Below, piece by piece: positions 9,707-34,832 of a stretch of 64,000 nt of DNA. Source of the stretch: Candidatus Dormiibacterota bacterium (GTDB lineage Bacteria; Chloroflexota; Dormibacteria; Aeolococcales; Aeolococcaceae); the NCBI GenBank assembly GCA_963718525.1, contig OY970355.1, forward strand, positions 992,001-1,056,000, given 5' to 3'. A model generated the notes under the pieces. It was given only the letters and a program-made list of their open reading frames with translations. It did not search any database and had not been told where the DNA came from. Made by a program: the position numbers and the translations under genes. How positions within the stretch are numbered: the first letter of the stretch is position 1; each line of letters begins with the position of its first letter.

Positions 9707-9808
9707 TCAGGGCGGCGGCTCCACCACGGCAATTCCGTCGGCGATATGGATGCGCCAACCCTCCTCGTGCACCACGCGGTGATGCGGCCGGCACAGAGAG
9801 ACCAGGTT
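9707..9808 (-). pseudogene. displaced 3' fragment of the DUF222/HNH gene
   Basis: Reads NLVSLCRPHHRVVHEEGWRIHIADGIAVVEPPP*, the in-frame continuation of ...TELDNLV at 33684-33692. Confidence 0.9.
9800..9808. repeat. att core, left junction of element 1 (GACCAGGTT)
   Basis: Identical 9-mer at 33684-33692; lies 17 bp before the integrase ATG. Confidence 0.9.
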
Positions 9809-9825
9809 AGTCAGTTACTGCTAAT

Positions 9826-11250
9826 ATGCCCCCTGCCATGAAGAGCCCGAAGGCAGCAGCGATTTATGCGCGGATCAGTAGCGATCCCGCCGGAACCGCG
9901 CTAGGCGTCGAGCGGCAGCTCGAAGACTGTCGGCAGCTCGCGGCCGACCTCGGGTGGAGTGTTGGTGGCGAGTACGTGGATAACGATGTCTCGGCATACT
10001 CGCGCACGCGCAAGAGGCCCGAGTACACGAGGATGCTTGGCGATCTTAGGGACGGCCAGTGCGACGCCGTGTTGGCCTACCACGTCGATCGGCTATACCG
10101 GCGGCCGATAGAACTGGAACAGCTGCTTGAGGTCGCCGCCGAGGCGCGCGTGCTCGGTATTCACTTCGTAGCGGGGCAGGAACTCGACCTTGGCAATGGT
10201 GATGGACTCCTCGTGGTGCGCATGCTCGTCGCGGCGGCGGCACACGAGTCAGCCTCGAAGAGCCGCCGCATCCTTCGCAAGATGGAACAGAACGCAGCCG
10301 CCGGCCTGCCTCACGGTGGTGGCCCCTACCACCGTCCGTTTGGCTACGAGAGCGACAAGATCACTGTTCGCGAATCCGAGGCCGAGCTCATCCGGACGCT
10401 GGCCGGCCGCTTCCTGGCCGGAGAGAGCACCAGGTCGCTCGCGAAATGGCTGGAGCAGGACGGGGCCAAGACGGTCGCGGGAGGGACATGGACGACGACT
10501 ACGGTTCGCAACCTCCTCACCTCCGGCAGAGTGGCGGGCCTGCGCGAGCATCGCGGTCGGATCGTCGGCCCTGCGGTATGGCCGCCGATCATTTCCGTTG
10601 AGCAGCGCGACCGCATCTGTGCACGCCTCACAGCAAACGTCCGCGCCGGGCGACGAACTCCCCGCCGGTACTTGCTGAGTGGATTACTGCGGTGCGGCCG
10701 CTGCGGCACCCGACTGTTCAGCTCAGCTCGGCGAGCCCACCGTCGCTACGTGTGCCTATCCGGACCTGATCACGGCGGCTGTGGTCACCTCACGGTCGTC
10801 GCCGGCCCGTTGGAGGCGCTGGTAGCCGACGCCTGCATCTTCAGACTGGACTCGCCAGAATTAGCCGACGCCCTCGCAGGTCGCGCATCTAAGAACAGGG
10901 AGGCGGCCGCGCTGAGCGAGGAGTTGGCGACCCTCCGAGCGCGCCAAGAAGAGCTTGCTCACCTGTTCGCGGCCGGCGATATCGGCGGCGCCGAATGGCG
11001 GATTGCCGGGCAGGACCTTGCCCAACGCATGCACCATGTCGAGGCGGCCCTGTCGCGGGTGACCCGCACCGACGCGCTCAGCGGCATCGTCGGCGATGGC
11101 GATCGGCTGCGAGCTGCGTGGCAAGGCATCAGTCTTAGTCGACAGAATGCCGTCATCAGGGCAGTACTCGACCATGCGGTGATCGCACCGGGGGTGTCTG
11201 GCGCCCGTGCGCTCGACCATCATCGCGTCGGCTTCGTGTGGCGGGCCTAG
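9826..11250 (+). CDS. large serine recombinase (integrase)
   Basis: IYARIS catalytic Ser, YVDNDVSA, DRLYRRPIELE, recombinase domain, CGRCG zinc ribbon, coiled coil; closely resembles phiRv1 Int as recalled. Confidence 0.93.
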   Translation: MPPAMKSPKAAAIYARISSDPAGTALGVERQLEDCRQLAADLGWSVGGEYVDNDVSAYSRTRKRPEYTRMLGDLRDGQCDAVLAYHVDRLYRRPIELEQLLEVAAEARVLGIHFVAGQELDLGNGDGLLVVRMLVAAAAHESASKSRRILRKMEQNAAAGLPHGGGPYHRPFGYESDKITVRESEAELIRTLAGRFLAGESTRSLAKWLEQDGAKTVAGGTWTTTTVRNLLTSGRVAGLREHRGRIVGPAVWPPIISVEQRDRICARLTANVRAGRRTPRRYLLSGLLRCGRCGTRLFSSARRAHRRYVCLSGPDHGGCGHLTVVAGPLEALVADACIFRLDSPELADALAGRASKNREAAALSEELATLRARQEELAHLFAAGDIGGAEWRIAGQDLAQRMHHVEAALSRVTRTDALSGIVGDGDRLRAAWQGISLSRQNAVIRAVLDHAVIAPGVSGARALDHHRVGFVWRA

Positions 11251-11304
11251 TCCCAGAGCGCGAACACCTCGTCGAGTTATGAGTGAGCATCAAATCGACC
11301 AGCA

Positions 11305-12333
11305 CTATCGAGGCGTGAGCAGCTGGCGCAGTTCACGTAACTGACGAGCGACGGACCTCCGATCAGGTTTTTCCTCTGAAGTCTCGGCCAACTGATCAGC
11401 CTTCACCGCGTCGGGCAACGCAATCCCCTCCATGACGATTCTGCGATACAGGGGCAACGCCGCCTGTAGGGTAGCCAGCTGTGGGCCGAAGTTACCCTCT
11501 GGTTCGGCACCCCGTGCCCTAAGCAATCGCTCTTGGCGCGGTCGAATGACGTTCGTACAGATCCACTCCATGTCCTTCTTCGTCACGTACTCGTCGATAC
11601 CACCAACCTTGAGTGCAAAGCTCCCGACGATGACGTCATCGGTGCTGTCTCGGATCTCAAGCAGAGCTTCGGGAAGCTCGATGCCGACGAGGCACTCCGT
11701 CTCTTCGGTGACGAGGAACTCACTGATGCGCGTCGCGATTACGCCGTTGCGCACGCAGGGGAGCCGGTGGCGGGCGCATAGGCAGGCAACAGCGTCATCC
11801 AGCGGTACGCCCTCGTGGAGCCCATGTCTGAGCCAGTGCGGGTTGGAGGAATGGCTCAGGTCGGCGTGGGCGCTCCGCCTTGCGGTGAGCACCGCTTCAG
11901 CGCTCAAAAGTATGCCTGGAAGCCGGTCGTCGGAAACAAGGGCGTCCACTCGCCCGGTAGCCTCGAGTTCATGCACACGGATCCACTCCGAGGCGCGTCG
12001 CCTGCGGACGAACTGCCGAGTGCCAATCGCGTCTGATTCCAGCTGGATATGCGGCGGATCCGTCACCACGCTCGACCCGCTGGGGCCGAGATCAGGAGGT
12101 GATACGTCAAACCAAACGCTATCGCCCTCCCCTCCATGTAGCAGTTCCGGCCTATGCCCGAGCGCACTACGCACGTCCCGACAATCAAGTTCGAGGTGCG
12201 GGTTCTCCGAGAGAAACAACAGACGCGCGCGAAGGCCTTCGGACGTGTCCTGCCACGGAACCTGCCGTCGCGGGTAGACGCGATCTGCCAGGTAGGTGCG
12301 AAGCGCCCGCTCGAACTCGACGTGCAAGTGCAT
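11305..12333 (-). CDS. hypothetical protein, possible C-terminal HTH
   Basis: Long ORF convergent with the integrase and divergent from xis; start uncertain. Confidence 0.55.
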   Translation of the reverse strand: MHLHVEFERALRTYLADRVYPRRQVPWQDTSEGLRARLLFLSENPHLELDCRDVRSALGHRPELLHGGEGDSVWFDVSPPDLGPSGSSVVTDPPHIQLESDAIGTRQFVRRRRASEWIRVHELEATGRVDALVSDDRLPGILLSAEAVLTARRSAHADLSHSSNPHWLRHGLHEGVPLDDAVACLCARHRLPCVRNGVIATRISEFLVTEETECLVGIELPEALLEIRDSTDDVIVGSFALKVGGIDEYVTKKDMEWICTNVIRPRQERLLRARGAEPEGNFGPQLATLQAALPLYRRIVMEGIALPDAVKADQLAETSEEKPDRRSVARQLRELRQLLTPR

Positions 12334-12536
12334 AGTCCTTGCGTCGCAACTGGGCGAGTGCGAGCCGATAGGGTGCGACGCCGTTGATTTCGTCGTCTGT
12401 GAAGTTCGGCACACTGTCGCCGAACAGGAGGCGAGCGACTCCCGCCCACGTTAGACGGCTTGCCCTAGGGCTGCGCGTCATAGGCGCCCTCTATGACGTT
12501 CCCACCGAAGCCTGACGGCACTCCACGATTCGCGGC

Positions 12537-12740
12537 ATGGCACCCGACAACTCTAGGACGATCGAAGAGCTGCCCGAGTTCCTGACGAGGGCCGAGGCGG
12601 CCGCACAACTCAGGATCGGCCGGGCGCTCCTTGACCGCATGATCAGCTCCGGCGAGTTGCGCGCACTCCGTGTGCACCGTCGGGTCCTGATCCCAGTCGC
12701 GTCGATCCGTGAGCTCGCCTGCAGAAGTCGACCTCGGTGA
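12537..12740 (+). CDS. excisionase-like HTH_17 protein
   Basis: FLTRAEAAAQLRIGR...GELRALRVHRRVLIP. Confidence 0.85.
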   Translation: MAPDNSRTIEELPEFLTRAEAAAQLRIGRALLDRMISSGELRALRVHRRVLIPVASIRELACRSRPR

Positions 12741-13120
12741 GCGCGCAGAGCGGACCACGGCCTGGGTCACGCGACGTCGCAACCCAGCGCCCTGAGGCCG
12801 TTGTCGATACGCCGCTGGCTCGTTGCTCGGTCTCCACGGCCGGTGCGGCCGGCCGGGATCGTCACCCTCCGCAGTTCGATCCGGCGGTGGTGGAGGTCAT
12901 GGTGCGCGCGCCCCGTGAACAACAGCATCTTCCTGCACGCGAGTGCCAGACCTTGCACGACTGGGTCGGAAGGTCGTGCCTCGCGCAAGCCGTTCCGCTC
13001 CACGTCACCGATCCGGCAACGCTGCAGCAGGTGGCGACCCTCCTTGGTGCGACCGCACCAGCGCCGACGAGGCGTCGGACGCCGGGGGCAACTGCAGCGA
13101 CGACCTCACGAGCGTGGTGA
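12737..13120 (+). CDS. hypothetical protein
   Basis: GTGA overlap with xis; ...AQAVPLHVTDPATLQQVATLL. Confidence 0.45.
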   Translation: MSAQSGPRPGSRDVATQRPEAVVDTPLARCSVSTAGAAGRDRHPPQFDPAVVEVMVRAPREQQHLPARECQTLHDWVGRSCLAQAVPLHVTDPATLQQVATLLGATAPAPTRRRTPGATAATTSRAW

Positions 13121-13207
13121 AGTGCGGCCGATGAATCGCGAAGTCGCTTCTCTGGCGGCGGCCCCATGGCGCCTGTCGCCTCGCGCGGACGTCCGCGACA
13201 AGGCATC

Positions 13208-13966
13208 GTGAGTACGCTTGGCGCAAGGGCGCTCGGACTTGCGGTCGACGGATTTCGGGTTATTCCGGTGATGTCCAACGGCAAGGCGCCTCTCACCGAA
13301 CACGGATGTAAAGACGCGAGCGCTGGCGCTGACCTGATCACGGCATGGTGGCGGCGCTGGCCAGAGGCGAACGTGGGCGTCGCCACCGGAGACGGCCTCT
13401 GTGTCGTCGACGTCGACATGAAGCAGGGCGTCGATGGCGAGGCGACGTGGCAAACTCTTCAGCAGGCACACGGCACGGCGCCGACCACGCGCACAGTGCT
13501 GACCCCCAACGGCGGTCGCCACCTGTACTTCATCAGCGTCGGCGCCAGCGTTGCCTGCAGCGTCAGCAGGTTGGGCCCGGGCATCGACATCCGAGGCTCG
13601 GGCGGCTACGTGGTCGCGGCGGGCACGATCGGCGGCAAGATCTACCAAACCTTGCCCGAGCCTGTCGCGACGGCGCCAGCATGGCTGCTGGAGCTCGTGC
13701 GAGCGCACGACGTCGCAGGCCGCCCGGTCGTCGAATGGCGACAGCTGGCCCGTACGGGGGTCGAGCTCGGTCGCCGTAACGCCGCTGTCGCTTCCTTCGC
13801 CGGTCATTTGCTGCGCAAGGGCGTCGACGCCTGGGTCGTCCTCGAGCTGCTGCGAGGCTGGAACCAGTCTCGTGTCCAGCCGCCGCTGCCGGACGACGAG
13901 CTGCTGCGTTGTGTCGACAGCATCGCGGGCCGGGAGCTGAGTCGGCGGATTGGTCCGCGGTCGTGA
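13208..13966 (+). CDS. bifunctional primase/polymerase (Prim-Pol) with PriCT domain
   Basis: GKAPL, ANVGVATG, VVDVD, TPNGGRHLYF, DIRGSGGYVV, GRRN...PPLPDDEL. Confidence 0.9.
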   Translation: MSTLGARALGLAVDGFRVIPVMSNGKAPLTEHGCKDASAGADLITAWWRRWPEANVGVATGDGLCVVDVDMKQGVDGEATWQTLQQAHGTAPTTRTVLTPNGGRHLYFISVGASVACSVSRLGPGIDIRGSGGYVVAAGTIGGKIYQTLPEPVATAPAWLLELVRAHDVAGRPVVEWRQLARTGVELGRRNAAVASFAGHLLRKGVDAWVVLELLRGWNQSRVQPPLPDDELLRCVDSIAGRELSRRIGPRS

Positions 13967-15537
13967 TGACGTCTGACAACATCACGGCGCTTGCCGCGAC
14001 GGAAACGATGCCAGCCATCGTGGTCAACGACAGGCCGCTCCGTGACGTCAGCGCCGATGCTCTGGTCGCGCTCTACGAGTTGAACGACCCTCCCGTTATC
14101 TTCGCCCGCGGCGACGTCCTGGTCCGCGTGCAGCGCAATGCCGATGGCACTGGCCGCGTTGTCCCGCTCGGCGAGGACCACCTCCGCGGCCACCTGACCC
14201 GCAGCGCCGATTTCGTCCGCGCCGTACGGCGCGGGCAGTCGACTGTGGACATCCAAGTAAGCCCGCCCCGGGACGTCGTTCGCGACCTGCTCACTGCAGA
14301 GGGCTTGGCCTTTCCGCATCTGCAAGGCCTGGTCAGTTCTCCGGTGGTGCGCCCCAATGGCAGCATCCTGGAGAAGCCGGGCTTCGACGTGGCGACCGGC
14401 CTCTACTACCTGCCGCCGGTAGGGTTCAGCGTGCCGGCGATCCCCGCCCGGCCGAACACCGACGAGGTGGCCGCGGCGTTGAGCCGGCTGACCGAGGTCT
14501 TCGGAGACTTCCCCTATGCAGACGAGGCCTCGCGCGCGAATGCGATGGCGCTGCTGTTGACTCCGGTGGTCCGCCCGATGATCAGCGGGCCGACCCCCCT
14601 GGGGCTCGTGGACTCTCCTCAGGCGGGGACCGGCAAGGGTTTGCACGTCGAAGTCGCAAGCATCATCGCGACCGGGAGCACGGCCGCGGTGACCACCGCC
14701 CCACGCAGCGACGACGAATGGCGAAAGCGGATCACGTCACTCCTGCTGAGCGGACAGCCCGTGGTGCTCGTAGACAACATCGAGGGGACCCTCCACAGTC
14801 CCAGCCTTGCTGCCGCCATCACGGCGCCGGTCTGGCAGGACCGGTATCTCGGCCAGAACCGTCAGGTGACTCTGCCGGTTCGGGTCGCGTGGCTGGCTAC
14901 CGGAAACAACATCAGGCTGGGCGGGGACCTGGCTCGGCGCTGCTACTGGGTTCGACTCGATGCCCGGAGCGCCCAGCCATGGCGGCGCACCGGCTTCCGC
15001 TACCCCGATTTGGTTGGGCACGTGCGCCAGTGCCGCCCGCAACTGGTCGCAGATCTGCTCACGCTGGTCCAGGCCTGGGTGGCGGATGGCCAGCCCGGCG
15101 CCTCCATCCTGCCCCTGGGGTCGTTCCAGGAATGGGGTCGCATTGTCGAAGGCATCCTGGGCGTGGCCGGCGTCAATGGCTTCCTGGGAAACCTCGACCG
15201 AATGTACGACGTCGCCGACGTCGAGACCGGGGCATGGACAGCATTCCTGGAGGCCTGGTGGGATTACTTCGGCGGCCAGGAGGTGACGGCGGCCGGTGTG
15301 ATCGAGGCCACCGCGTTGGAGCAACCGGGCCTTGTGCGCCTCCGCAACGCCTTGCCAGAGGAGGTGGCTGACGCCAGGCCCGAGCGGCGGAGCCGCGCGC
15401 TCGGGACGGCGCTGGCGTCGCGCGAGGAGCGCCGCTACGGCGCCTCGGGCTTGCGCGTTACCCGGACTGGGACGCAGCACCGAGCCGTCTGCTGGAAGGT
15501 GGTTGTAAATGAGGTGGTGAGTCCGGTGAGTCCCTAA
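13966..15537 (+). CDS. primase-associated P-loop ATPase/helicase
   Basis: Walker A AGTGKG, Walker B VLVDNI, ATGNN, DLARR; coupled to prim-pol. Confidence 0.75.
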   Translation: MTSDNITALAATETMPAIVVNDRPLRDVSADALVALYELNDPPVIFARGDVLVRVQRNADGTGRVVPLGEDHLRGHLTRSADFVRAVRRGQSTVDIQVSPPRDVVRDLLTAEGLAFPHLQGLVSSPVVRPNGSILEKPGFDVATGLYYLPPVGFSVPAIPARPNTDEVAAALSRLTEVFGDFPYADEASRANAMALLLTPVVRPMISGPTPLGLVDSPQAGTGKGLHVEVASIIATGSTAAVTTAPRSDDEWRKRITSLLLSGQPVVLVDNIEGTLHSPSLAAAITAPVWQDRYLGQNRQVTLPVRVAWLATGNNIRLGGDLARRCYWVRLDARSAQPWRRTGFRYPDLVGHVRQCRPQLVADLLTLVQAWVADGQPGASILPLGSFQEWGRIVEGILGVAGVNGFLGNLDRMYDVADVETGAWTAFLEAWWDYFGGQEVTAAGVIEATALEQPGLVRLRNALPEEVADARPERRSRALGTALASREERRYGASGLRVTRTGTQHRAVCWKVVVNEVVSPVSP

Positions 15538-15608
15538 TCAGCCGCCGCAGCGCCGAGCTCCGCGGCCTCCAATCGACATGCAACTCACTGGACTCACCCA
15601 ACTCACCA
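15516..15608. repeat. iteron-like direct and inverted 9-bp repeats (putative origin)
   Basis: GGTGAGTCC x2 (15516-15533) and ACTCAC x3 with 9-bp period (15583, 15592, 15601) in opposite orientation. Confidence 0.65.
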
Positions 15609-15802: not shown

Positions 15803-15850
15803 GATTCATCTCATGCATGAGATGAATCTCTTTGATACCATAGATGGTAT
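15803..15850. promoter_or_regulatory. palindromic operator pair
   Basis: Perfect 26-bp palindrome GATTCATCTCATGCATGAGATGAATC (15803-15828) and ATACCAT-AG-ATGGTAT (15835-15850) at the XRE gene start. Confidence 0.65.
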
Positions 15851-16283
15851 GAGAAGAAGCCGTACGGATCTGCGCGACCAGGCGAAACGAGTCGCCACGA
15901 TAAAGAAGCATCGGGTCGACGGACTACACCAGCGGCTGGGGGCACAGGTCGGCGAGAAGATCCAAAAGCTACGCGTAACACGCGGGTACTCGCAGGACCG
16001 ACTTGCCCGCCGCGCAGAGACCTCGCAGTCCGCAATTGCCCGATTGGAAACGGGGAGCGCGCAAGTCCGGCTCGACACGTTGAGTAGGATTGCCCTGGCG
16101 CTTGACGCCGATGTCGACATCAACCTCGTCAAGAAGCCCGCCTCCGACTTTCGCAGCCGCGACTTGCCGAAAGGAACACCCGTCCCGGCGTCGCGGGCGC
16201 GGAGGATGAAGGCGAGGGGCGAGTGGTCAGAAGCCAGCGTCATGGAAACTCGCCCTACACCTCACCGCGAACAAGGATCCTAA
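15849..16283 (+). CDS. XRE-family HTH regulator
   Basis: LRVTRGYSQDRLARRAETSQSAIARLETG...LDTLSRIALAL; start could be 15813. Confidence 0.85.
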   Translation: MRRSRTDLRDQAKRVATIKKHRVDGLHQRLGAQVGEKIQKLRVTRGYSQDRLARRAETSQSAIARLETGSAQVRLDTLSRIALALDADVDINLVKKPASDFRSRDLPKGTPVPASRARRMKARGEWSEASVMETRPTPHREQGS

Positions 16284-17404: not shown

Positions 17405-17836
17405 ATGACGAAACGACTGCCGCCTCCGAGCCGTGCGAGGTACGCAGCCGCGCATCCCACCATCGGAATCCATGTGACTAGCGATGTCTATACGCAACTC
17501 GTAGCGCTTCGCGACGTCTCAGGACATTCCTTCGGAACGCTCGTGCAGGAGAACCTCGGCGTCATCGAGAAGGAATACCAGTCCGTGCGCAAGCGGGGGT
17601 TTGATGATGGCCACGTCGTAGGGGTTGCCGAGGGTCGCAGAGCTGGATACCTAGAGGCACTCCATCTGTACTGCGTGAGCTACTCCTGCAGCATCTGTGG
17701 TCTGCCGATGAGGCTGCGACCTGGAAGTCGCGCGGCGAAGGTTGCAGCCGAAGCCCTAGGGGAGATGGGCTGGGGGCATAGCCAGTGTCACCAACGGCGG
17801 CGACCCACAGAGGGCCACGATGCGTCGCAGCAGTAG
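17405..17836 (+). CDS. hypothetical protein with CxxC/HxxC putative zinc site
   Basis: CSICG...HSQCH; overlaps the resolvase start. Confidence 0.55.
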   Translation: MTKRLPPPSRARYAAAHPTIGIHVTSDVYTQLVALRDVSGHSFGTLVQENLGVIEKEYQSVRKRGFDDGHVVGVAEGRRAGYLEALHLYCVSYSCSICGLPMRLRPGSRAAKVAAEALGEMGWGHSQCHQRRRPTEGHDASQQ

Positions 17837-18503
17837 GGCCGAGCGCGGCCGAACGCCGGCGGCGGGCCGGGGACCGGTCCGCGTCGCCCTCTACGCCAGG
17901 GTGAGCACCCGGGAGAAGGATCAAGACCCGGAACTGCAACTCGCCCCGATGCGGAACTACGCCGCTGCCCGGGGTTGGGAGGCGACCACCTACATCGACA
18001 AGGCCTCCGCGGCAGACATGATGCGGCGCTCCGCATGGGCACACCTCATCGAAGACGCGCGACTTCGGAAGATCGACATCGTCCTGGTGTGGAAGTTGGA
18101 CCGTGCCTTTCGCTCTACGCTCCACTGCTTGCGGACCCTCGAAGTCTGGGACGGTCGTGGCGTCGGCTTCGCGTGCGTGACCCAAGACGTCGATACGACG
18201 TCCTCGACTGGTCAGTTGCTGCTCACGATCCTCGCCGCGGTGGCCGAGTTTGAGCGCACTCTGGTCGCCGAGCGTGTCAAGGAAGGTATGGCGAACGCCC
18301 GACGAAAGGGCATCCGTATCGGGCGCCCGCCCGCCACTGAGCGCGAACACGTCGCACGCCACCTTGCCGAGGTGTGCGCGTCGATCGATGCCGGCACGAT
18401 GAGCAAGCGAGCAGGAGCTCGTCGACTTCGCGTTGGGTTCGGAACTCTCGATCGGATTCTCGCCGCTACGAAAGGGCAGGCTGCGAATCGAGAGCTCTCC
18501 TGA
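17820..18503 (+). CDS. small serine recombinase (resolvase/invertase)
   Basis: YARVST, VWKLDRAFRS, AEFER, GRP hinge and C-terminal HTH. Confidence 0.92.
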   Translation: MRRSSRAERGRTPAAGRGPVRVALYARVSTREKDQDPELQLAPMRNYAAARGWEATTYIDKASAADMMRRSAWAHLIEDARLRKIDIVLVWKLDRAFRSTLHCLRTLEVWDGRGVGFACVTQDVDTTSSTGQLLLTILAAVAEFERTLVAERVKEGMANARRKGIRIGRPPATEREHVARHLAEVCASIDAGTMSKRAGARRLRVGFGTLDRILAATKGQAANRELS

Positions 18504-18630: not shown

Positions 18631-21600
18631 TCAGTCCGTTTCGAAGCCGTACGCGTCCAGCTTGAGTGTCCGTGCATTCTCGGTGACGGTGCGCGTCACG
18701 TGATCGGGGAATCCGCCGGAGTTGGTGGCTTTGACCTCGACCGAGATTTCGATGTCGGTACCCAAGTAGCCGGCGAGGTTCGCGATCACCTCAGCCGCCA
18801 GCTTCGCAAAGTCGCGTTGGTATCGCTCTGGGTCGAGCTTGGCCACAGCGTAGAAACGTCGCAGGGCTTCGACCACCGGAGCCTCGGCGTCGCGGTCATG
18901 AAGCGTGAGTTCCGCGGTGGCCGGGGGCTTGCCACCAGCGCCCGAGCCCGCCAGGCGTTCGGTCGCCTCATCGACGAGCTGCGGTGCGGCGGCATCCGGC
19001 TGGACGACGAGGGTCGCACCCGTCACTGTCGTCCCCTCCGCGTGCGTGGAGAGAGCCACAAACCGCCCAGTCGTCGGATCGACGCCATCAGCCAGAGCGA
19101 ATCCCATCGTCTGCCACGTAATCGGATTCGCCCCGTGACGGGCCGTTGCGCAAAGGGTCTCCAGGTTCTTGAGACGCGGGAGATATGGGTATCGGGCGAA
19201 TGCGTCCCACACCGCGTTCACGGTCGTGTAGCCCTCGACCCACATCGGCGAGAGGACACCCCCGGGATTGAGAAGGCCGCGGAGCAGCTCGCTGGGGTAG
19301 GCGATACCAAGAGAACCCGCATTGACGAGCTTTCGGCTCGCACGGGCGCCGACCGGTCCCTGGCCGTCGGCCTTCATCATCTCCCACTCGATTGCGCCCA
19401 TCGAGTTCAGGCTGATGCGGGACTAGACACCAGTGGTAGCTCTCGGCGAGACGGAGGTCCACAGCGCGATCAGCGTCACTTCGCTTGGACCGGGCCTGGT
19501 TGGTCTGGAAGACGTCAAGGTTTAGCTCTGCACGGCGGTCGTCGATCTCCTTCCACGCTAGATACTCGGCCGACCCTCGCTCAAGCTCCCCCAGGCGCGT
19601 CAAGTCGGGGGCGAGGAATACGAGCATATTGCGGTACAGCCGTTGCCCCGACGCTCGCTGGTCGAGGATTTCACGTGCGGCCGCCATGGCCTGGGAGTTG
19701 AGGTCTCTGTTCGTGTGGGGCGCACTCGGCGCGAGGATGACGAGCCGTGCTTCTGAATCATCGGGGACCTCACCGGGACTAGCCGGGCACACGTGTACCG
19801 CCACGAACTCCCCGCGCTCGCGGGCTTGCTCGCGAAGTCTGCGAATGATCTCGGCGTGAAGTTCGTCTCGACGGGTCGCGAGCAGTTGGTCCACAAGTTC
19901 GCGGGCACGCCGGGCAACCGACGCCTGCGTCCCGTACCAGTAGCGGGCGCCCTCGACATAGAGGTAGGAGGATCGGTCTGTAAGTCGGTTGAGTGCATCC
20001 CCATACGTGGCTACGGATTCGCCAGGGAGTGTGCACGCGAGCTTGACACGTTGGATCTCCACGCCGCGATTAGCGGAGCCCGTTCTCGGTGCTGACGCTA
20101 GGAAGACGGCCCTAGCCGCACGCCGGGCAGCTCCGTAGCGCCCGAGGTTGGGGAAGGCTCGGTCGAGCCTGTGCGGCACCGATGACGGTCCATCGATGTC
20201 GCTGTCGAGGATTGGCTGCCATGTGTGGTCAAGGTTTCTCGTCAACTCGGACTGCACAGCCGCATCGTCCAACGGGACGCTGGCGGGGAGGATCAAGGGC
20301 GATTGGTCGTTGCCGGCCCAAAGCGCCGAGATCACTGCGGCCATAAGTCGGAGCACGCCGCGGGTGCGCTGGAAACCCTCAAGGGTCGACCAGTCTTCGT
20401 AGAGGCGAGCGAACAGCTCTGGATGAATGGGGTACGAGCGCTTGATCTTCTCGACATACCCCGGCTCTCGGCACTCGCCAGGGAACTCTGATGCCTGCGT
20501 CCGGTACATCTCGCTGAACGTTTGAGCGGTTGCGTCCCGATACCTGGTGAGGTCGGAGGGGATCGGTTCGAACAGGCGGCGTCGGACGATCTCAAAGCTC
20601 TCGTCGGCCGACGCCGGGCGCCACGATGTTTCTGTGCGGGCCATCACATTGCCAAGTCGACGAGCGGCCTCCTGTCCCGCGACGCCACCGACCTCGGCCT
20701 CAGAACCAATTGGAGTAGCGCCGGACCTAGCGGGGTCGTCGGACACGGGGAGTGAAACCACGAGGAGCACTCCCGGGACCGCGATTGCTGCATCGGCAAG
20801 GGTCTGGGCGAAGGAGAACTGCGTCTCGAACATGCCGCCGGGAAGCAGCTCTGATGTCTCGAAGAGCTGGCGGGCGTAAGCTACCCATTCGTCGATCAAG
20901 AGTAAACACGGGCCGAAACGTCTAAACACTTCGGACATCGCACGGCCAGGGTTAGTAGCGGTCCGGTCGGCTTCGCTCACAAGCCGGTAGCCCTCGACGC
21001 CGCCGAGTTGCCAGGCGATCTCGCCCCACAGGGTGCGTATCTCAGTGCCATCGGGCTTTACCTGAGGCTGACCCGGGGAAAACTCCGTGCCGACGAGGAC
21101 AGCTCGCCTCACGGGAGGCAACTCATTCACGCCAGCAGCGGTAAGAAGCTCCTGAATCTCCTGCGGGAACGATGTGGTTGGCAGACCAGAGAAGAGGTGG
21201 TAGAGCGCAATCATGGAGTGGGTCTTGCCGCCGCCGAAATTGGTCTGTAGGTCGACGACAGGTACGCCCCCGCCACTTGTAATCCGCTGGGCCGCGTGCG
21301 TGAGCAGTTGCCGAAGTCCGGCAGTCAAATATGTGCGTCGGAAGAACTCGATTGGCTCCGTGTACTCGGCGAGCCCTCTTCCGAGGTGCACTTGCTGGAG
21401 GTTGGCTGCGAACTCAGCCAGAGCGAATTTGCCCTTGGCGACGTCGTCGTGGGGCTGGATCACCTCTCGCCACGGCCGAAGCCCCCCGGCGGGCTCGGTG
21501 AAGAGAGCATCCGGGTGGGGCGCGGTCTTCTTAGCGTCCGCTTCGAGACGCTGACGCATCAGGTCGCTCTTGGCCGCGCCGACTTCGGTTGCTTCCGAAG

Positions 21601-21946
21601 CACCAATCACCGTGAGCAGCCGTTCGATCGTGTCGAGGGCGCGGTATGCATCGTCGTGCGAGAACGGTTCGTTGTGAGCCCACTTGTTGCGCCAGTCGCG
21701 AACCTCGCCTATCAGGTTGCGCCCCGTCGTCCGCAACTCGTTCCGAAAAACGTCCTGCCAGTTGTCGAGCACGGCGCTGATTTGCGCCGCGGGATCCTTG
21801 TCGACATTGACGTCGGCGTAGGTAGCCTTCCATCCGTCTCCTTTCGGAGAACTCTTGGACATGCGTTGGTCCACATAAGGCCCGAATGCCCGGCCCAACA
21901 ACTCCAGGGCCCTGGCCACGCGATCCCGATTACTTGTCGCCATCAA
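18631..21946 (-). CDS. Swt1-like HEPN + DUF499 AAA ATPase; apparent +1 frameshift near 19406
   Basis: RNKWAH HEPN motif, QTNFGGGKTH Walker A, LIDEW, YPIHPE, FQRTRGVLR; C-terminus continues in ORF 18631-19401. Confidence 0.85.
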
Positions 21947-24680: not shown

Positions 24681-27600
24681 CAGGCGTCCAAAGGTGATGC
24701 AGCCCGGTGCCAATAGGCCTGCCAGGCGAGGGTCGTGCTAGTTGTGTCAAACGGCAGGCGGACATCGGGACCATAGGGATGCAGCAAGTACTGCACCCGA
24801 TCGTGCTCCGGCCCGTTGGGCGAGACCTCGACGAGTGCAAGGACGTACGCGTCCGGCACGTTCGCGGCAAACCGAAGCTCGTTTTGAGTTACCACGAACG
24901 TGTCAGCTCCTTCGATGCGGCCCTTGACCTCCAAGAACGAAGTCGCGCCTCCGGCCGTGGTCGAGCGCACGTCGTATCCCGGGTGATTGTGAGGCATCTC
25001 GAACGCCTCGTGGCCGAACCGCCTCTCGATCGACAGTACCGCATCGACCGCACGTCGCTCGACGATGGTTGTGTCAACCGCATAGGTGGCTGATGCCGCA
25101 GGTGGCTCGCCGATCGCCTGTAGCACGAGGCCGATTGGTATGACCAGGGCACCCCCGACAACCACCGGAGGTTGAGAGGCTACCTGCGCCTCGCGATCCA
25201 GTTCGGCGAGTCTGGTTTCCTTGCGGCGTTGCAACTCATCGGCACGTCCAGCAGCCCGGTCCGGATTCATCCGTGGTGACTTGCCGGCGGCTGCTTGGAG
25301 TTGAAGCTCACTTGCGCGGTGATCCCAGTAGGTAACCTCTCGCGTCAGGCGCTCTTGTACCGCGGCTTTCACCTTGGCTACTCGCGCCACGATACGGGAG
25401 CGGACTTCGGCGAGGTGCTCGGCGGAGAGAACGTCGATTCCGTAATCGACCGCCCTCGAACTCAACGTCATCGTGCAGCCATGACATCTTCTTGACCAAA
25501 GGACCGAGGGCCAACAGCTCCGCATCGGTGGGCGGCCGAAGGTCAAGGTAAGGCGCGTAGCTCGCCGGTCGAAGCTCGCCTGCTTCGGGAACTTCAACGA
25601 ACTCGAATCGACGTGACACAGTGCGCCGGTTCCCATGGCCATCGTCTCGCGCATCGGTTAGTGCATGTTCCAGGAAGACGAGCACGCTCGGGTCAGTTCC
25701 GCCGTCCGTTGAGTCAACCAACACCGCTCCTTGGCGGAGGAGAGTTCGGTGGCGTTCCAGGGTGATGTCAAGAACCGCTTCGAGAAGCGGATGGCCAGGA
25801 GCTACCAGCTCAGCGAGCGGCTTGCCTTCAACGTGAACGAGCGTCTTCTCGAACGTCACGCGTTGATATTTCGGAAGAACGGGCACACCGGCACCGATTA
25901 AGCGGTCGCGGTTGCGTATTTCGGCGGGGACGAAAGTGACCTCAAACCTGCTCGCCTCGCGTTCGCTCATCCGGCCGCCGAGGTGCGAAAACGCTAGCGC
26001 GAACCATGCGTGTACATAACCCGGTTGCAGCTTGCGGGCCTCGGCTTCGAGCATGTCGGCTCGGATCTGTTCGAGGTCGGCCGTGGACAGCACCTCGGAA
26101 CTGAGCGCATGCTCGCGGACCATCGCCGGAAGACCTTCGCCAACCTTCGCGTCGATGATCCGGTTGAGTTGCGCCTTTACCTCGGGCTGGTTGCCGTAGC
26201 GAATCGCTTGTAGTAGCAGGTCTCGCAGCTCACGGCCGGGGAGAACATCGCCTAGGACGTCAAACACTTGATCCTTACCGAGGGTGTCGCGCATCTCGGA
26301 GAGCTTGTCCAGAAGCCGTCGGTAGACCTGTCCCTCGCGAGTCTCGTCGGCGACGAGGTTCCACATGTGGCAGACCTCAGTCTGCCCGATCCGATGTACC
26401 CGTCCAAATCGCTGCTCGATGCGATTGGGGTTCCACGGCAAGTCGTAGTTCACCAAGAGATGGGCTCGCTGGAGGTTGATGCCTTCTCCGGCAGCGTCAG
26501 TCGCAACCAGGATCAGACAGTCCTTATCCTGGGTGAATCGTTCCTGGATAACTCGTCGTTCTTCACGAGCTACCCCTCCGTGGATCGCGACCACGGCCTC
26601 GTCCTTGCCTAGGTACGTGCGTAGCTTGCCGACGAGGTAGTTCAGTGTGTCGCGATGCTCAGTGAACACGATCAGCTTCCGCCGCGTTCCACCGGCTTCC
26701 ATCATCTCCGGCGCATCGGCGAGAAGGCCAAGAAGTTCGGTCCACTTCTTGTCGATCTGGGATTGGCGAACGCGGTCAGCGAGGCCTTCGAGTCGACCCA
26801 GTGTTGCGATCTCGTGATGCAACTCAGCCAGGGTGCGCGCGCTCGTGGCTTGATCCAGGAGCTGTTCCTCCAGCTCCTCGACCTCGGCGCCCTCGAGATC
26901 CTCAATGTCGTCATCAAAGTCCTCGTCGGGGTCGTCGAGCTGGATGCGAAGCGGTTCGGATTCAGCAAGGATTGCCTGCGCTCGCTGCTGAGCCCTTGCG
27001 TCGCGCGCCCTTTCTTCTAGTCTTTTGCGACGCCGGGAGAGGGATTGATAGATTGCCTCGGGGCTTGATGCGAGTCGCCGCTGCAACACCGTCAGCGCGA
27101 AGCCAACACGGTTTCCACGCCGACCCTCGCCTTCCGCAGATAGGCGTTCAGCGCGCCCCATTTCCTCTGCGACGTAGTCGGTTACCTCCGCGTAGAGCGC
27201 CATCTCCAAGTCAGACAACTCATACGGGACGGTGTAAGCACGGCGCTCGGGGAATAGGGGTCGACCGTCGAACCGCAGGATGTTCTCCTTCACCATTCGA
27301 CGCATAAGGTCTGATACGTCCGCTGTGTGCACCCCGTCGTGGACCTTCCCCTCAAACCGATCTGAATCGAGGAGCGCCATGAAGAGCTGGAAGTCCTCTT
27401 CCTTGCCGGCGTGGGGTGTCGCCGTCATCAACAGGAAATGGCGGGCTGTCTCACCGAGCACTTTGCCGAGCCGATAGCGCTTTGTCTCCTTTACTTCGTT
27501 GCCGAAGTAATGGGCGGCCATTCGGTGAGCCTCGTCGACCACAACGAGATCCCACTCCGTGGCCGCCAATCGCTCTACCAAGTCATCGTTGCGGGAAAGG

Positions 27601-28223
27601 TGATCCAGACGACCGATGAGTAGATTCCGCTCGCTAAATGGGTCGCCTGTTCGCGCTGCTTCAATCAGCTCTCGGGTCAGAATCGAGAAGTCGAGTCCGA
27701 ACTTGTCGTGCAACTCGTCCTGCCATTGCCCGACGAGCCCACCAGGCGCAACGATGAGAGCTCGGCGCAGATCGCCGCGTAACATCAGTTCCTTTATGTA
27801 GAGCCCCGCCATGATGGTCTTCCCGGCTCCGGGGTCGTCAGCGAGGCAGAAGCGCAGCGGCTGACGGGGCAGCATCTCGCCGTAGACGGCGATGATCTGG
27901 TGCGGCAACGGTTCGATGAGGCTGAGATGAACCGCAAGGCGCGGGTCAAAGAGATAGGCGAGGCGGATTCGGCGGGCCTCCGCAACGAGCCGGAACAGGG
28001 CTGCGTCACCATCGAACGACCAAGCGGCGCCGCGCCCGTCTACGCTCAAGTCGCCCTCTTGGGTGCGGTAGACGACCTGCTCGTCCACCTTGCCCGCCGG
28101 CGTGCGGAACGTGAGTACCACGCTCCGAGTCCCAGCCCAGCGAGCTGCGACAACGGTGACGGCCTCACCTGGGACAACCCCCCGAACAAGCGCGCCGGGT
28201 GTCAGTTCCTCAAGCCTCGTCAT
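24680..28223 (-). CDS. SNF2 helicase with C-terminal DUF3883 nuclease; apparent +1 frameshift near 25460
   Basis: ADDPGAGKT, DEAH, TATPH, QRFGRVHRIGQ; C-terminal GYDVRS...EVKG in ORF 24680-25654. Confidence 0.88.
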
Positions 28224-30647: not shown

Positions 30648-30915
30648 AGGCTAACGGCTCGCTCGATAGGTGATGTCAGGGGACCCTCGTCCCGCGAGCC
30701 CAAGGGACCGAGAGTGGCCCTACGGGGCGATGATGCCGGGCAATAACGGTCGGAGTCGGCATCATGATCGTTGAGCTCCGGGGTAGTGCTTTGTACGCCA
30801 GCGGACTGCCAACGACCCGTTCTATGGCTTTAATGAGGCCATTGATGCAAGGCGACCGGTCGTGACGCGTACCTTGGTCGCCGGGGCCTCGTCGAACTCC
30901 AACGGTGCCCCCCCG

Positions 30916-31860
30916 ATGCTGGAGGAGCGCTTCGCGACTGTTCGCGGGCAGCCGCTTCGCTACCTCGTCTGCGGGCGCGGCAAACCGCTGGTCCTCTGCC
31001 ATGGCTTCCTCAGCTCGGCCGAGGAGTTTGGAGGGAGGTTCAGCGAGCTGGGGGCGTATCGAACCCTGATCATCCCCGACCTTCCAGGGAACGGTGCGTC
31101 ACCGCCGCTCCGCGGACGGCACTCGTCCGGGGCCATGGCCGATGTGCTGTTCGACCTGCTGGCTGAGCTCCAGATCGACAAGTTCGATGTCGGCGGTCTC
31201 TGCCTTGGAGCGACCGTCGCCTGCGCGCTCGCGAAGCGGGCAGGCACCCGAGCCGAGCGGTTGGTCCTTCACACGCCGCTGCTGTCGTCCGACCTGATGC
31301 GCCGGCGCTACCGAGACCAGGTGCGCCTGTTGAGCCGCCGGCCCATGTGGGACGGCGTCGTCTGGTTGAGCCGGCAGCGCTGGGTGAGCGATCTCTACAA
31401 GCGCTTCGTCATCGTCGAGGGCGACGTCGACGATCGCACCGCCGACATCAACTACGAGAATCAGCGCCGCGCGGATCCTCGCGCCGCCCGTGAGTGGCTC
31501 AACGACTGCCTGCACCGCGACGACGTCGATGTGGTCGCCGCACGGGCGGAGCGGACGCTCATCATCGTCGCTCGACACGATCGCCTGGTCGACGTGGAAC
31601 GGCTCAAGGACGTGATCGCGACCCTACCCGACCTCCAGGTGTTCACCGACAGCGACCAGGGTCATGGCTGGAACGAGGAGGCCGTGCACCGTCAGCTGGA
31701 GGTGCTCAAGGCGTTCTTCGGCAACTGCCACGGGAATGGCCACACTAATGGAAGTCAGGTGGTTGCCTCGGGCGTGTCAGCGAACGGCGCTGCGAACGGA
31801 GCAAGCCACGGACGGCCCTCGCTGCGCGACACGGTCAGTGTCCCGCTCTCCCACGCCTGA
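30916..31860 (+). CDS. alpha/beta hydrolase with Cys in the nucleophile elbow
   Basis: LCHGF, PDLPGNGAS, GLCLG in place of GxSxG, late D and GH; start could be 30862. Confidence 0.8.
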   Translation: MLEERFATVRGQPLRYLVCGRGKPLVLCHGFLSSAEEFGGRFSELGAYRTLIIPDLPGNGASPPLRGRHSSGAMADVLFDLLAELQIDKFDVGGLCLGATVACALAKRAGTRAERLVLHTPLLSSDLMRRRYRDQVRLLSRRPMWDGVVWLSRQRWVSDLYKRFVIVEGDVDDRTADINYENQRRADPRAAREWLNDCLHRDDVDVVAARAERTLIIVARHDRLVDVERLKDVIATLPDLQVFTDSDQGHGWNEEAVHRQLEVLKAFFGNCHGNGHTNGSQVVASGVSANGAANGASHGRPSLRDTVSVPLSHA

Positions 31861-32370: not shown

Positions 32371-33606
32371 TCAGTCTCGCGGGACCGGAACCACCACGAG
32401 CGCGATCCTGACGAGCCGTTGCTTGTCCCCAACATGATGGAGATACACGGTCGGGTTCCCGGCTACCGGTGACCCGTCGCGGATGTACTGTGCGTGCCCG
32501 CGGAGCGACTGCAGAGCCTTTTCACTCAGCCCAGTCACGTCGTCCTCGCGCATGAAGAGAACCAGTGCTGCCTTGGTGTCTCGCCAGACGAGGTACCCGA
32601 GGAGCTGGTCCACAGCTTCGCTGAACGCCTTCTGGCCAGCCCAGAACTTGCACTCTGCGATGAAGACGGGTCCCTCAGCGGTGACCACGAAGATGTCAGT
32701 CTTGCCATTCCGGCTGAAGGTCTCCCCGCTCGCTTCGCCGAACGTGTTGTTCAAGATGAGCAGGAGGATGTCCCGCAGCCCCTGCTCTGGCAGCGAGGCA
32801 AACGTCACTGGCAATCGCTCGATGAGACGACGAAGTGTGCCGAGGAACTCGATGATCTGGATGTAGCCCTCGTCGCGCAGGAAGGGTCCTCCAGCCCGAT
32901 CGGCCGTCGACCCGACGACGGGAACAAGACCGCGACGCGGTACCTCCACGGCGAGCGCGGCGTCTGCGTCGGCCCTGCGACGTATCGGAAGACCGAGGGC
33001 TGATTCCAGGCTCTGACCCGTCTCCAGGCGCTGGCGCCGTCGCTCCAGAGCCTGACGAACTCGGTCCAGGAGAGTGTGGTTGAACCCTCGGATGTCGCTG
33101 ACGGCCCAGCCAACGTATTCGCCGATCTTGACGAAGGCTTCGTCCACGGACGACTTCATGCCGGCCTGCACCTCCGCCGAGGCGGCGGCATCGGCTGCGA
33201 CGGTCACAGTGACGACGACCGCGTGGTCGCGAACATCGCCGTGCGGCGGGTTCAATGTGAAGCGACTGGGAGAGAGATCGAGGATCTCGGGATCGCCTTC
33301 GAATGTCTCGTGTACCTCGATGCGATGGCCAGGGATGAACGCCGGACGACTACGGTCGAACACCGCACGTGCCCAGTCCCGACTGACGTCGATCCGCGTC
33401 TCCTGTACCCCATCGACAATGTACCGGTCGCCTGTGAGGCTCGGCTCAGCAACCGCGAAGCGATCCACGATGGGCTGGGCGAGGTCGTTGATCGAGTCGC
33501 GCAGGATCTCGGCTGGCGCAAGTGCGTCAACCGCTTGCAGAGCGCCGCGCTCGCGCTCCCCAAGCCACTCACGCAGTTGCCTACGTTGAAAGAGAAGTCG
33601 ATCCAC
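32371..33606 (-). CDS. uncharacterised protein with C-terminal PD-(D/E)XK nuclease-like domain
   Basis: GETFSRNGKTDI...FIAECKFW...QLLGYLVWRD; GTG start inferred at 33606. Confidence 0.7.
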   Translation of the reverse strand: MDRLLFQRRQLREWLGERERGALQAVDALAPAEILRDSINDLAQPIVDRFAVAEPSLTGDRYIVDGVQETRIDVSRDWARAVFDRSRPAFIPGHRIEVHETFEGDPEILDLSPSRFTLNPPHGDVRDHAVVVTVTVAADAAASAEVQAGMKSSVDEAFVKIGEYVGWAVSDIRGFNHTLLDRVRQALERRRQRLETGQSLESALGLPIRRRADADAALAVEVPRRGLVPVVGSTADRAGGPFLRDEGYIQIIEFLGTLRRLIERLPVTFASLPEQGLRDILLLILNNTFGEASGETFSRNGKTDIFVVTAEGPVFIAECKFWAGQKAFSEAVDQLLGYLVWRDTKAALVLFMREDDVTGLSEKALQSLRGHAQYIRDGSPVAGNPTVYLHHVGDKQRLVRIALVVVPVPRD

Positions 33607-33674
33607 TCCAACCCCGACTCTAGGGCTGAAGAGGTGAGGCGCGATCCCGGTCGCCGACCTCAGCAGGGGATGTC

Positions 33675-34805
33675 TTAACGATGGACCAGGTTGTCGAGCT
33701 CGGTGCGACCGCCGTCCGGCCAGTGGATGATGTGGTGGCCTTCGGTCCATGCGGGCGGTCGGTCGCACCCCGGGAAGCGGCAGCCCTGGTCGCGAACAAC
33801 CAGCGCGGTGCGGAGGTGCGCCGGGATCGTCCGCGTGGCCCGTCCCACCGAGAGCGGCAGTGCATGCGTGCTCGCAGCCATCCACGCCAGATCCTCAGCA
33901 GGCGGCGCCACCATCACCACCGTCCGCACCGCGTCGCAGGCGATGCGGCGTGCGGTCTCGGGATGGATCGGACCCACACGGCCCAACTCGGCCGGCGCTG
34001 CAGCGGCGCCGGAACGGAGCGTGTCCGCGCTCACCGTGACGGTGAGATGCGGCCGCTGCCCGTGCACATCGCGGTGGTCTCCACAGCGCAGCTGGGTGGT
34101 CGCAAGATCGACCAGCGCGTCGGCCCTGCGCTGGGACGCCAACCGCTCTTCGCCCCAACTCATCCCGTGACTGAGCGCATCGATCGCCGTCTTCACCAGC
34201 GCGCCGCCCTCGGCGTCGAGCTCACCACGGAGGACGAACACGCCCCCATAGGTCTGCTCGCACTCGAACCAGCGGCGTTCGTGGGCGCGGTTGTCATCGG
34301 CGAGCACCCCATCGGGGTCGAGGCGCAGCCGGGTGGCCTGGGTGAGCATGCGCATGGCCCGGGGCTCAAACGTCTCCGCCGCGCCCACCAGGACGTGCTC
34401 GAAGGGCGCCAGCTGCGCCACGCCGACATCCTCGGCGAGGTGGGCGATCATGGTCACGTTGCTGAAGGAGGCGCGCCCGGTACGAGCGCTGTCGAGCGTG
34501 GCCGGCAGCTCTCCCAGGGTCCGGGCCAGGTGGACGCGGTAGGCGGCCGCCTTCACGGTCATCCCGCAGGCACGTCGCAGCCAGGACACCGTGCTCCCCC
34601 CGCCATCGGCCTGGGCGCCCCGCTCGCGATGAAAGCGGTGCAGACGGCGGATGGACTCGGCCTCCAGCCGATCGATCGCCCGGCGGATGTCGACGATGTC
34701 CTGACCCAGGGCGTGCGTCGAGAAGCCGTCGATGGACTCTCCGACGAGGGTATCGACCGCCTCACGCAGACGGTCTCGCGCATCCGGTATGGCGAACGCT
34801 TCCAT
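33675..34805 (-). pseudogene. DUF222/HNH endonuclease (13E12-repeat-like), interrupted by element 1
   Basis: QRRADAL, RRIACDA, RDQGCRFPGC, HHIIHWPDGGRTELDNLV then premature HR*. Confidence 0.9.
33684..33692. repeat. att core, right junction of element 1 (GACCAGGTT)
   Basis: Identical to 9800-9808. Confidence 0.9.
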
Positions 34806-34812
34806 ACAGGAT

Positions 34813-34832
34813 ATTATACCAAACACCTGTTC
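34813..34832 (-). promoter_or_regulatory. extended -10 promoter overlapped by a LexA (Cheo-type) SOS box; leaderless start
   Basis: Minus strand GAAC-AGGT-GTTT (34821-34832), then TG-G-TATAAT (TATAAT 34813-34818), 7 nt before the ATG at 34805. Confidence 0.75.

Follow-up and report, generated by a model that had tools for sequence, protein, structure and literature searches.

The closest described system to the one reported here is phiRv1, which, according to the passages devoted to it in PMC9317374 and PMC1931498, lies in REP13E12 of Mycobacterium tuberculosis. The target family is connected to DNA damage in that species: the relevant section of PMC3381160 lists six LexA chromatin immunoprecipitation peaks at 13E12 genes, including Rv1588c beside phiRv1. 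For serine integrases in general, short attachment (att) sites with a central dinucleotide are the rule, as stated in the part of PMC1470463 on this subject. Here we analyse a 64-kb stretch of contig OY970355.1 (assembly GCA_963718525.1; hereafter the window), in which positions 9809–33683 are very probably a discrete integrative mobile element of ~23.9 kb, placed by a large serine integrase into a gene of the DUF222-HNH type. A preliminary description of the window had claimed phiRv1-like targeting of 13E12/DUF222 genes, and the strategy indeed matches the one outlined for phiRv1 in those passages (PMC9317374, PMC1931498).

The window flanks are the two halves of one DUF222-HNH gene, cut at the codon for the catalytic Asn. 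On the minus strand, 9707–9808 translates to NLVSLCRPHHRVVHEEGWRIHIADGIAVVEPPP and then a stop (33 codons), and this tail piece aligns with the C-termini of eight intact homologues. The head piece at the other border encodes 374 aa, starting with M and ending with HHIIHWPDGGRTELDNLV, and matches Pfam DUF222 (2.3e-29) and the opening part of HNH; with the element integrated, the head continues as ...NLV-HR, with two extra codons (HR), to a stop at 33675. Precise excision would, at the sequence level, rebuild an open reading frame (ORF) of 404 codons. Genomes of the same genus hold many copies of the target gene, with 71–86% DNA identity, and in them the matches to head and tail are contiguous to the base, for example in G008:C3 (99217/99218), G016:C15 (126817/126818), G005:C4 (260499/260500) and G012:C10 (53714/53715). 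A full-length ORF of 402–433 aa was found at 8 of the 11 relatives' loci that were fetched, with an uninterrupted ...TEL(D/E)NL(V/I)SLCR.HH...PPP; these eight intact homologues run through the join as ...TELDNLVSLCRPHH...PPP and stop. At the remaining three loci the filter used returned no full ORF, two of them (L008 and L010) being located at contig ends. The preliminary description had held that removing the insert rebuilds a complete HNH motif cut at its Asn, and the eight read-through loci bear this out. The joined ORF is thus present in relatives without the island, and this includes the orthologous locus in G003:C1 (1104233/1104234), where an uninterrupted DUF222 copy adjoins the same carboxyltransferase gene as in the window (7884–9455). 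In most relatives, this carboxyltransferase gene has no DUF222 neighbour.

The two GACCAGGTT copies claimed for 9800–9808 and 33684–33692 are the only ones in the window, both on the plus strand. By itself, the 9-nt repeat is weak evidence, at least two matches of the 9-mer being obtained in 6 of 100 shuffles, and it is the sequence context that decides. Thus, the insertion is read from this context, because both gene pieces fit one ORF and are contiguous in relatives. Joining the right end of the element to its left end rebuilds an attP of GGGGATGTCTTAACGATG-GACCAGG-TT-AGTCAGTTACTGCTAATATGCCCC, with arms that, read by eye, are roughly symmetric around the TT (GGGG...CCCC); as a circle with one core, the element would measure about 23,884 bp. 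This TT, on the plus strand, pairs with the AA of the Asn codon. No flanking repeat longer than the 9-nt core was found around the insert, and the att sites are those of a large serine integrase, i.e., short, partly dyad-symmetric around a dinucleotide and without long repeats. The idea that the HNH region is chosen as the best-conserved DNA of the gene found no support among eight close copies, with a majority identity of 0.92–0.95 in this region and up to 0.97 in other parts of the gene.

The empty site occurs naturally. Contigs of four soil metagenome runs (X2–X5) were compared with window 6001–26000; X3 and X4 are further samples of the study that yielded the probable source sample, X5 is from another study, and run X2 holds the island. 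X3 and X4 cover the left flank at a word depth of about 15–40, whereas across the island nearly all bins of X3 have a depth of 0 and X4 is close to 0. Record 13 of X3 follows the window over 8850–9808 with 0 differences and then goes on for 48 nt (GTCGAGCTCGGTGCGACCGCCGTCCGGCCA...), the printed loose end being window 33693–33722, i.e., head sequence. The match also ends exactly at 9808 in record 23 of X4 (8802–9808) and record 32 of X5 (9412–9808), which extend 46 and 44 nt further; the letters of the continuation were seen for X3 record 13 alone. Apart from the bridged junction, stretches of the window that no X3, X4 or X5 contig covers were not counted as evidence by themselves. Since contigs of three runs diverge at 9808, and one of them is printed into the head, the island is a presence/absence polymorphism with the predicted borders, and the empty allele that the preliminary description had proposed to look for exists in nature.

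The choice of this site is not peculiar to the window. Homologues of the integrase were collected from 42 genomes of the genus (19 with a match), from one genome per species (8 loci) and from metagenome contigs (18 loci), and the target was called from the DNA 5' of each integrase start. Among those with 55–66% identity, the integrase lies directly beside an HNH tail that is interrupted at the Asn codon at 14 of 17 loci, 11 called by pattern and three (L060, L028 and L046) by eye; homologues of this integrase do flank split DUF222 genes, a point that the preliminary description had proposed to test. The 17 loci are those with an N-terminus and at least 50 nt of flank, with L051 and L055 taken as one and with L073 and L083 dropped as their N-terminus is missing. 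At 45–54% identity, L071 and L078 show the same tail junction; L062 and the decayed L061, both from Mycobacterium (51–54%), adjoin the head in the opposite orientation, cut at the AA of the Asn codon; and L085, on the M. avium plasmid NZ_CP076860.1 (~51% identical), sits in the frame of an IS3-like transposase at ...AAAAGTT, another multi-copy target. The rest of this range comprises five loci without HNH and the ambiguous L059. Below 45% identity, L058, L048 and L034 adjoin DUF222 heads in which the cut falls at the motif's first His, and L054 abuts a tail, the other 19 loci having no HNH/DUF222 junction.

When placed in register by pattern, 19 junctions (the window's included) have HNH codons on the left and the conserved P' arm on the right, the observation being the conservation on both sides of the junction. 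In a midpoint-rooted tree of 41 full-length proteins, which leaves out partial and multi-piece matches, the integrases that target the tail group together in a single clade, and the mycobacterial group is its sister. A preference for the Asn codon of the HNH motif is therefore a property of the whole clade, and metagenome data hold at least 120 proteins at 57–69% identity to the integrase. We found no published description of such clade-wide targeting in a literature search that did not cover Bibb and Hatfull 2002 and 2005 on the phiRv1 crossover.

The genome itself provides further cases, as expected from the earlier claim that multi-copy DUF222 genes would give many landing sites: there is a second occupied copy, and three intact DUF222-HNH genes (subfamily 2) offer unoccupied GACCAGATT|CTCAAGG sites. 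The second element is ~12.2 kb long (G000:C1:2467600-2479766; L065 4801–16966) and has the same types of P and P' arm. Its integrase (G000:C1:2467630-2469018), 58% identical to that of the window, abuts the HNH tail NNVVLLCHRHY..., and at the far end the arm GGGGTTGTATTAACGATG|GACGAGGTT joins a DUF222 head with an in-frame stop, a deletion and frameshifts. The cargo consists of an IS110 transposase, Rep_trans, an OLD-type ATPase-TOPRIM protein, a TIR-TM protein and a hydrolase, the integrase being all that the two elements have in common. The tails at L060 and L028 are likewise frameshifted or truncated.

In addition, five inserts without an integrase (L087–L091; genomes G019, G008, G015 and G010), 1.2–8.5 kb in length, occupy the same Asn-codon spot. 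They keep the P arm, GGGG(A/T)TGT..TAA.GA., beside the head, and their tail side stops exactly at ..CAG(G/A)TT, without a P' arm. Their cargo includes AraC and methyltransferase genes, GNAT, an aromatic amino acid lyase and an ECF sigma factor, and its direction with respect to the DUF222 promoter varies (by our reading, the two agree in 4 of 6 cases), with no clear integron-like rule.

Several side observations concern these copies. The flanks of the second element are chimeric, with a tail of DUF222 subfamily 2 and a decayed head of subfamily 1, which hints at a rearrangement between DUF222 copies. An orphan DUF222 tail (G000:C1:1396345-1396449) has its end precisely at GACCAGGTT; the genes after it (GNAT, SnoaL, AraC and methyltransferase) make up a cargo of the type seen in cassette L088. 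A remnant at G000:C1:2462920-2463080 comprises a tail, the core and the adjoining 51 nt of a head, and 1 nt is deleted in it. Two more P-arm junctions, at G000:C1:1862115 and 1871959 (L092), lie near an intact subfamily-2 DUF222 gene; one of these P arms is followed by a head fragment of 20 codons, the stretch between the arms encodes a molybdopterin oxidoreductase, a hydrolase and an HTH_20 protein, and no window-type integrase is present at L092. Some cassettes open with a 50–60-nt head fragment followed by CCCGTCAATCC.CAAATGTACGTTGA.

The features of the element and of its target gene are collected in Table 1. The integrase has the three domains of large serine recombinases (resolvase catalytic, Recombinase and zinc-ribbon, the last as Zn_ribbon_recom PF13408 at 4.5e-9), with a further match to phrog_95 (1.5e-93), and its N-terminal motif YARISSD...ERQ contains the nucleophile serine. 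Just 3' of it, the W-SC-Q-VTD motif of the 73-aa ORF is present at 13 of 20 other loci with at least 47% integrase identity and at 1 of 23 below 47% (loci with at least 300 nt of downstream DNA), i.e., this ORF is co-inherited with the window-type integrase clade. It had no match in Pfam, PHROGs or PDB sequences, and its best protein-atlas score, 0.83, is below the useful range. The two ORFs of the primase/polymerase-helicase module overlap at 13909–13966 and may be one gene, split by an assembly indel.

Table 1. Coordinates of the element, its att sites and the split target gene in the window.
Feature	Position	Strand	Remarks
Tail (3' piece) of DUF222-HNH gene	9707..9808	-	starts NLVSLCRPHHRVVHEEGW, ends PPP and stop; second half of HNH motif
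attL core GACCAGGTT	9800..9808	+	predicted crossover dinucleotide TT at 9807-9808
P' arm AGTCAGTTACTGCTAATATGCCCCC	9809..9833	+	directly 5' of integrase start; C..T.ATCG.TAA...CCCC kept in relatives
Large serine integrase, 474 aa	9826..11250	+	Resolvase 8.4e-24 (residues 11-160), Recombinase PF07508 2.2e-13
HTH_17 protein (excisionase/MerR-type), 67 aa, isoelectric point (pI) 11.5	12537..12740	+	candidate recombination directionality factor
73-aa ORF, motif W-x3-SC-x2-Q-x5-VTD	12899..13120	+	second candidate accessory/directionality factor
Prim-Pol (1.8e-39) and PriCT_1 (4e-13) primase/polymerase	13166..13966	+	profile matches
C-terminal ORF of primase/polymerase-helicase type	13909..15537	+	phrog_10537 7.7e-79, phrog_19930 4.1e-42
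XRE/Cro-type helix-turn-helix (HTH) regulator	15813..16283	+	profile match
Small serine recombinase (resolvase/invertase type)	17820..18503	+	edge of cargo block with lower guanine-cytosine (GC) content
HmaC (DUF499 ATPase), N-terminal Swt1-like HEPN	18631..21946	-	1-nt frame break near 19406
HmaB (DUF1156 adenine methyltransferase)	21930..24713	-	E=0, 1046 bits
HmaA (SNF2 helicase, NOV_C-type C-terminus)	24680..28223	-	1-nt frame break near 25459
Alpha/beta hydrolase (cargo)	30862..31860	+	profile match
PDC-S54 candidate defence protein, ~411 aa from GTG at 33606	32371..33606	-	2.7e-101, 5-407 of 410
P arm GGGGATGTCTTAACGATG	33666..33683	+	same arm at second element and five cassettes in relatives
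attR core GACCAGGTT	33684..33692	+	second copy of 9-nt core
Head (5' piece) of DUF222-HNH gene	33684..34805	-	open frame, 374 codons
Promoter region of DUF222-HNH gene	34806..34885	-	-10, LexA-type box, inverted repeat GTTAT...ACAAC (34862-34885)

The cargo includes a block of lower GC content (18631–28223, minus strand, GC 0.60–0.64) with HmaC, HmaB and HmaA, which are adjacent on one strand and match their profiles with E from 1e-243 to 0. Nothing convincing in the way of longer flanking repeats or nested transposon ends was found around this block. The Swt1-like HEPN domain (PF18731, 1.4e-26; window 21602–21946) precedes the part of the protein that is covered by the PADLOC HmaC model. The preliminary description had spoken of a capsid-less defence island, and Hma and PDC-S54 were found together with no capsid, portal, terminase, protease, small-terminase or tail family among the 43 island ORFs scanned against PHROGs. 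Pfam scans of the island ORFs showed no FtsK/SpoIIIE or relaxase families, and no conjugation genes. About 10 island ORFs have no family match at all, and a plot of GC at third codon positions was too weak to tell reading frames apart.

The split gene lies at the edge of a defence neighbourhood, because a DISARM-like set is located to its right (39254–51905): DrmC (39254–40108), DrmB (40000–41451), DrmA (41692–44787), a weak DrmE match (44784–46928) and a C5 methyltransferase (47221–48870), followed by an HNH protein (48849–49838) and a type II restriction enzyme (49899–51905).

The head retains its promoter. The −10 element TATAAT (34813–34818) and the ATG are just 7 nt apart, which makes a leaderless transcript probable, and the LexA-type box CGAACAGGTGTTTG (34820–34833) lies 1 nt before the −10. 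The SOS-like box of the preliminary description therefore stands, being conserved in 11 of 11 copies, but it abuts the −10 rather than covering it. The half-sites CGAAC and GTTTG (CGAAC-N4-GTTTG) are invariant in all of these copies and the 4-nt spacer varies; CGAACAGGTGTTTG has three mismatches to the 12 specified bases of the actinobacterial SOS box (TCGAAC-N4-GTTCGA type; consensus as given in PMC3381160). The same GTTT variant (GAAC-N4-GTTT) is found in the upstream region of lexA itself (GAACATCCGTTTG), and in the second DUF222 subfamily CGAACGTCTGTTC abuts TATACT. Furthermore, CGAACAGATGTTCG precedes a RecA-fold gene that may be imuA-like. A genome-wide count of the pattern was uninformative (15 strand hits versus ~11 estimated by hand from base composition, with no shuffle control), and the argument for LexA therefore relies on position and conservation. 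A scan with the sigma-70 consensus returned no full −35/−10 pair 5' of the integrase, nor one for the DUF222 gene at its promoter. Taken at the sequence level, LexA control of the DUF222-HNH gene is plausible, and it is not new for the family.

A further inverted repeat, GTTA..GCC-N-GGC..TAAC, is kept in 11 of 11 copies ~60–80 nt before the start codon (34862–34885, minus strand) and is followed by TTGTCC(G/C)TG. It could be a second operator or the site of a RecA-independent damage promoter; its spacing to the −10 does not fit the RecA-NDp rule. Damage-induced read-through into PDC-S54 is possible, since the head promoter points into the island, PDC-S54 is on the same strand 70 nt downstream of the head's stop, and no terminator-like site was seen between the two.

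We propose that the integrase recombined attP with attB in a 13E12-like DUF222-HNH gene, with a crossover that would fall on the AA of the catalytic Asn codon. The element would bring its own replication module, made of the Prim-Pol and the helicase-type protein, together with regulators, and the multi-copy target family with its LexA-type box would offer several near-identical landing sites. We further infer an integrase that has kept its activity, with one of the two small proteins acting as directionality factor, and binding of LexA to the box; the element itself may move between cells as a helper-dependent satellite or a mobilisable island.

Some facts weigh against this picture. Three of the 17 close homologues lie outside HNH genes, namely L057 (at CCTGAGGTT, behind a maf-like gene), L077 (at CGTCAGGTT) and L086. 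Neither a contig nor a read of the circular attP form was seen in the metagenome data examined, no single sample showed the occupied and the empty junction together, and the empty site may be ancestral rather than a product of excision. Hma and PDC-S54 are predicted anti-phage systems by family match only. Moreover, HmaA and HmaC are each in two frames in the window. However, the X2 contigs lack one base at both 25459 and 19406, with frames open on both sides, and recA is also in two frames in the assembly (G000:C1:2411616-2412402), which seems to hold scattered 1-nt indel errors; the breaks therefore read as assembly indels, not as pseudogenes, and with the extra base removed HmaA would have 1180 codons and HmaC 1104. 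The assembly also matters for the left border. No listed X2 contig bridges 9808/9809, and the occupied junction hence relies on the window assembly and on the agreement of this junction with the pattern seen at other loci. Since DUF222 copies end many relatives' contigs and indel errors are present, one could suppose that the island was misjoined to this locus at DUF222 repeats. We regard this as extremely improbable: both junctions are at the same 9-nt core within one codon, the gene pieces fit one ORF to the base, the arms match the P and P' arms at 18 other junctions as well as other P arms, and a chimeric join would not recreate attL and attR.

Accepting the insertion, its meaning can be viewed in different ways. 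The preliminary description had favoured a reversible gene split, with excision switching the nuclease back on and possibly coupled to DNA damage. Spelled out, the element would be kept as a regulated interrupter: damage would lift LexA repression and trigger excision, thereby restoring an active SOS-induced HNH nuclease in the manner of SPbeta in spsM or skin in sigK. Such a switch would be served by a head (374 codons) and a tail that are both still open, a promoter left intact together with its LexA-type box, two small proteins that are candidates for the directionality factor, an ORF that precise excision would rebuild and a natural presence/absence polymorphism with identical flanks; serine-integrase gene switches have precedents, as described in sections of PMC5499854, and phiRv1 is reported in part of PMC12268328 to excise repeatedly in nature. 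Against this, the split copies elsewhere decay, as seen in the head at the second element and in the tails at L060 and L028, and integrase-less cassettes are permanent at the same spot in five relatives' loci. The three other intact DUF222-HNH genes make the nuclease supply independent of the split copy, no SOS box or other damage link was seen at the integrase or the candidate factors, although no search was aimed at one, and the intactness here is equally explained by a recent insertion. We therefore consider the switch improbable and favour a plain site-specific insertion into a convenient multi-copy target, given that split copies decay elsewhere and inserts without an integrase persist at the same spot; we judge restoration of the gene to follow incidentally from serine-integrase chemistry rather than to be a switch under selection. 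How such an insertion travels is a related matter. A helper-dependent phage satellite, of the phage-inducible chromosomal island (PICI) or phiRv1 type, would have lost its packaging genes or never had them, and its defence cargo would protect both host and satellite. The element does have an integrase, an AlpA-type HTH protein (the small HTH_17) and a primase-replicase at one end, as in phiRv1 according to the part of PMC12268328 concerned, together with an XRE-type regulator, and phiRv1 is termed PICI-like in a passage of PMC10654092. The missing capsid, protease, terminase and small-terminase families leave no recognisable packaging or capsid-redirecting function, although this could hide among the ~10 ORFs that match no family, and none of 202 records is a cultured-phage integrase more than ~33% identical. 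We thus treat the satellite as a tentative possibility, somewhat on the doubtful side.

Beyond this locus, plain insertion at a conserved point has several implications. The single textbook example of phiRv1/REP13E12 is extended to a large, mostly uncultured clade of integrases, which cross over at a conserved point, namely the codon for the catalytic Asn in the HNH motif. Anti-phage systems carried by such elements would add a route for the movement of defence islands in soil actinobacteria, and attP/attB pairs are at hand for a serine integrase family with natural multi-copy targets. It also raises the question of why SOS-controlled DUF222 nuclease genes are preferred docking sites. A bolder idea, which we hold to be rather unlikely, is that DUF222/13E12 HNH genes across Actinomycetota form a multi-copy docking platform with an SOS promoter for a whole clade of serine integrases that cross over at the AA of the Asn codon, where LexA-controlled read-through into the cargo (PDC-S54 in the window) would create an integron-like, damage-responsive site of accretion. 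If true, this platform would gather both integrase-bearing defence islands and integrase-less cassettes with a P arm only.

Comparison with known systems places the element between several of them. Its Hma set corresponds to the helicase, methylase and ATPase system of PADLOC, which is named in parts of PMC8565338 and PMC11232893, with the three genes adjacent on one strand, and differs in the extra N-terminal Swt1-like HEPN of HmaC. With actinomycete integrative and conjugative elements (AICEs) it is linked through its integrase relatives on plasmids (about 51% identical), as L085 (M. avium) and L086 (Gordonia, NZ_CP059695.1) lie beside a replication initiator and FtsK/SpoIIIE in an AICE-like arrangement, and through Rep_trans in the second element; in contrast to AICEs, the element of the window has no FtsK/SpoIIIE or relaxase family. 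Staphylococcal cassette chromosome (SCC) elements at rlmH use CcrAB at a conserved att site in the 3' part of the gene, and they include cassettes without a recombinase. Such cassettes are bounded by att half-sites, as are those of the relatives here, yet the recombinase family, target gene, phylum and cargo are all different, and the target here is multi-copy. In SPbeta (SprA/SprB, in spsM) and skin (in sigK), a developmental programme governs excision, and the host needs the gene that is rebuilt. An element with a large serine recombinase that splits a frame, which precise excision rebuilds, is outlined in PMC5499854, whereas no trigger or need is shown for the element here and sister copies decay.

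The likeness to phiRv1 is the closest. Both have a large serine integrase in a multi-copy DUF222/13E12 gene with partial gene pieces on either side, and in both the integrase and primase lie at one end. For phiRv1, the account in PMC12268328 adds a small excision factor, for which the HTH_17 protein (67 aa, pI 11.5) and the 73-aa ORF are the two candidates here. In M. tuberculosis, LexA binds genes of the target family, among them the piece beside phiRv1 (PMC3381160). On the other hand, phiRv1 is ~10 kb long and has a terminase, a prohead protease and a capsid, whereas the element here is ~24 kb long, has none of these that could be found, and carries Hma and PDC-S54 instead; its host is an uncultured soil actinobacterium, and the mycobacterial integrase relatives L061 and L062 are oriented differently, beside the gene head. 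Relative to phiRv1, the differences are the defence cargo, the lack of head genes, the host, the orientation and a whole clade of integrases specialised for this site.

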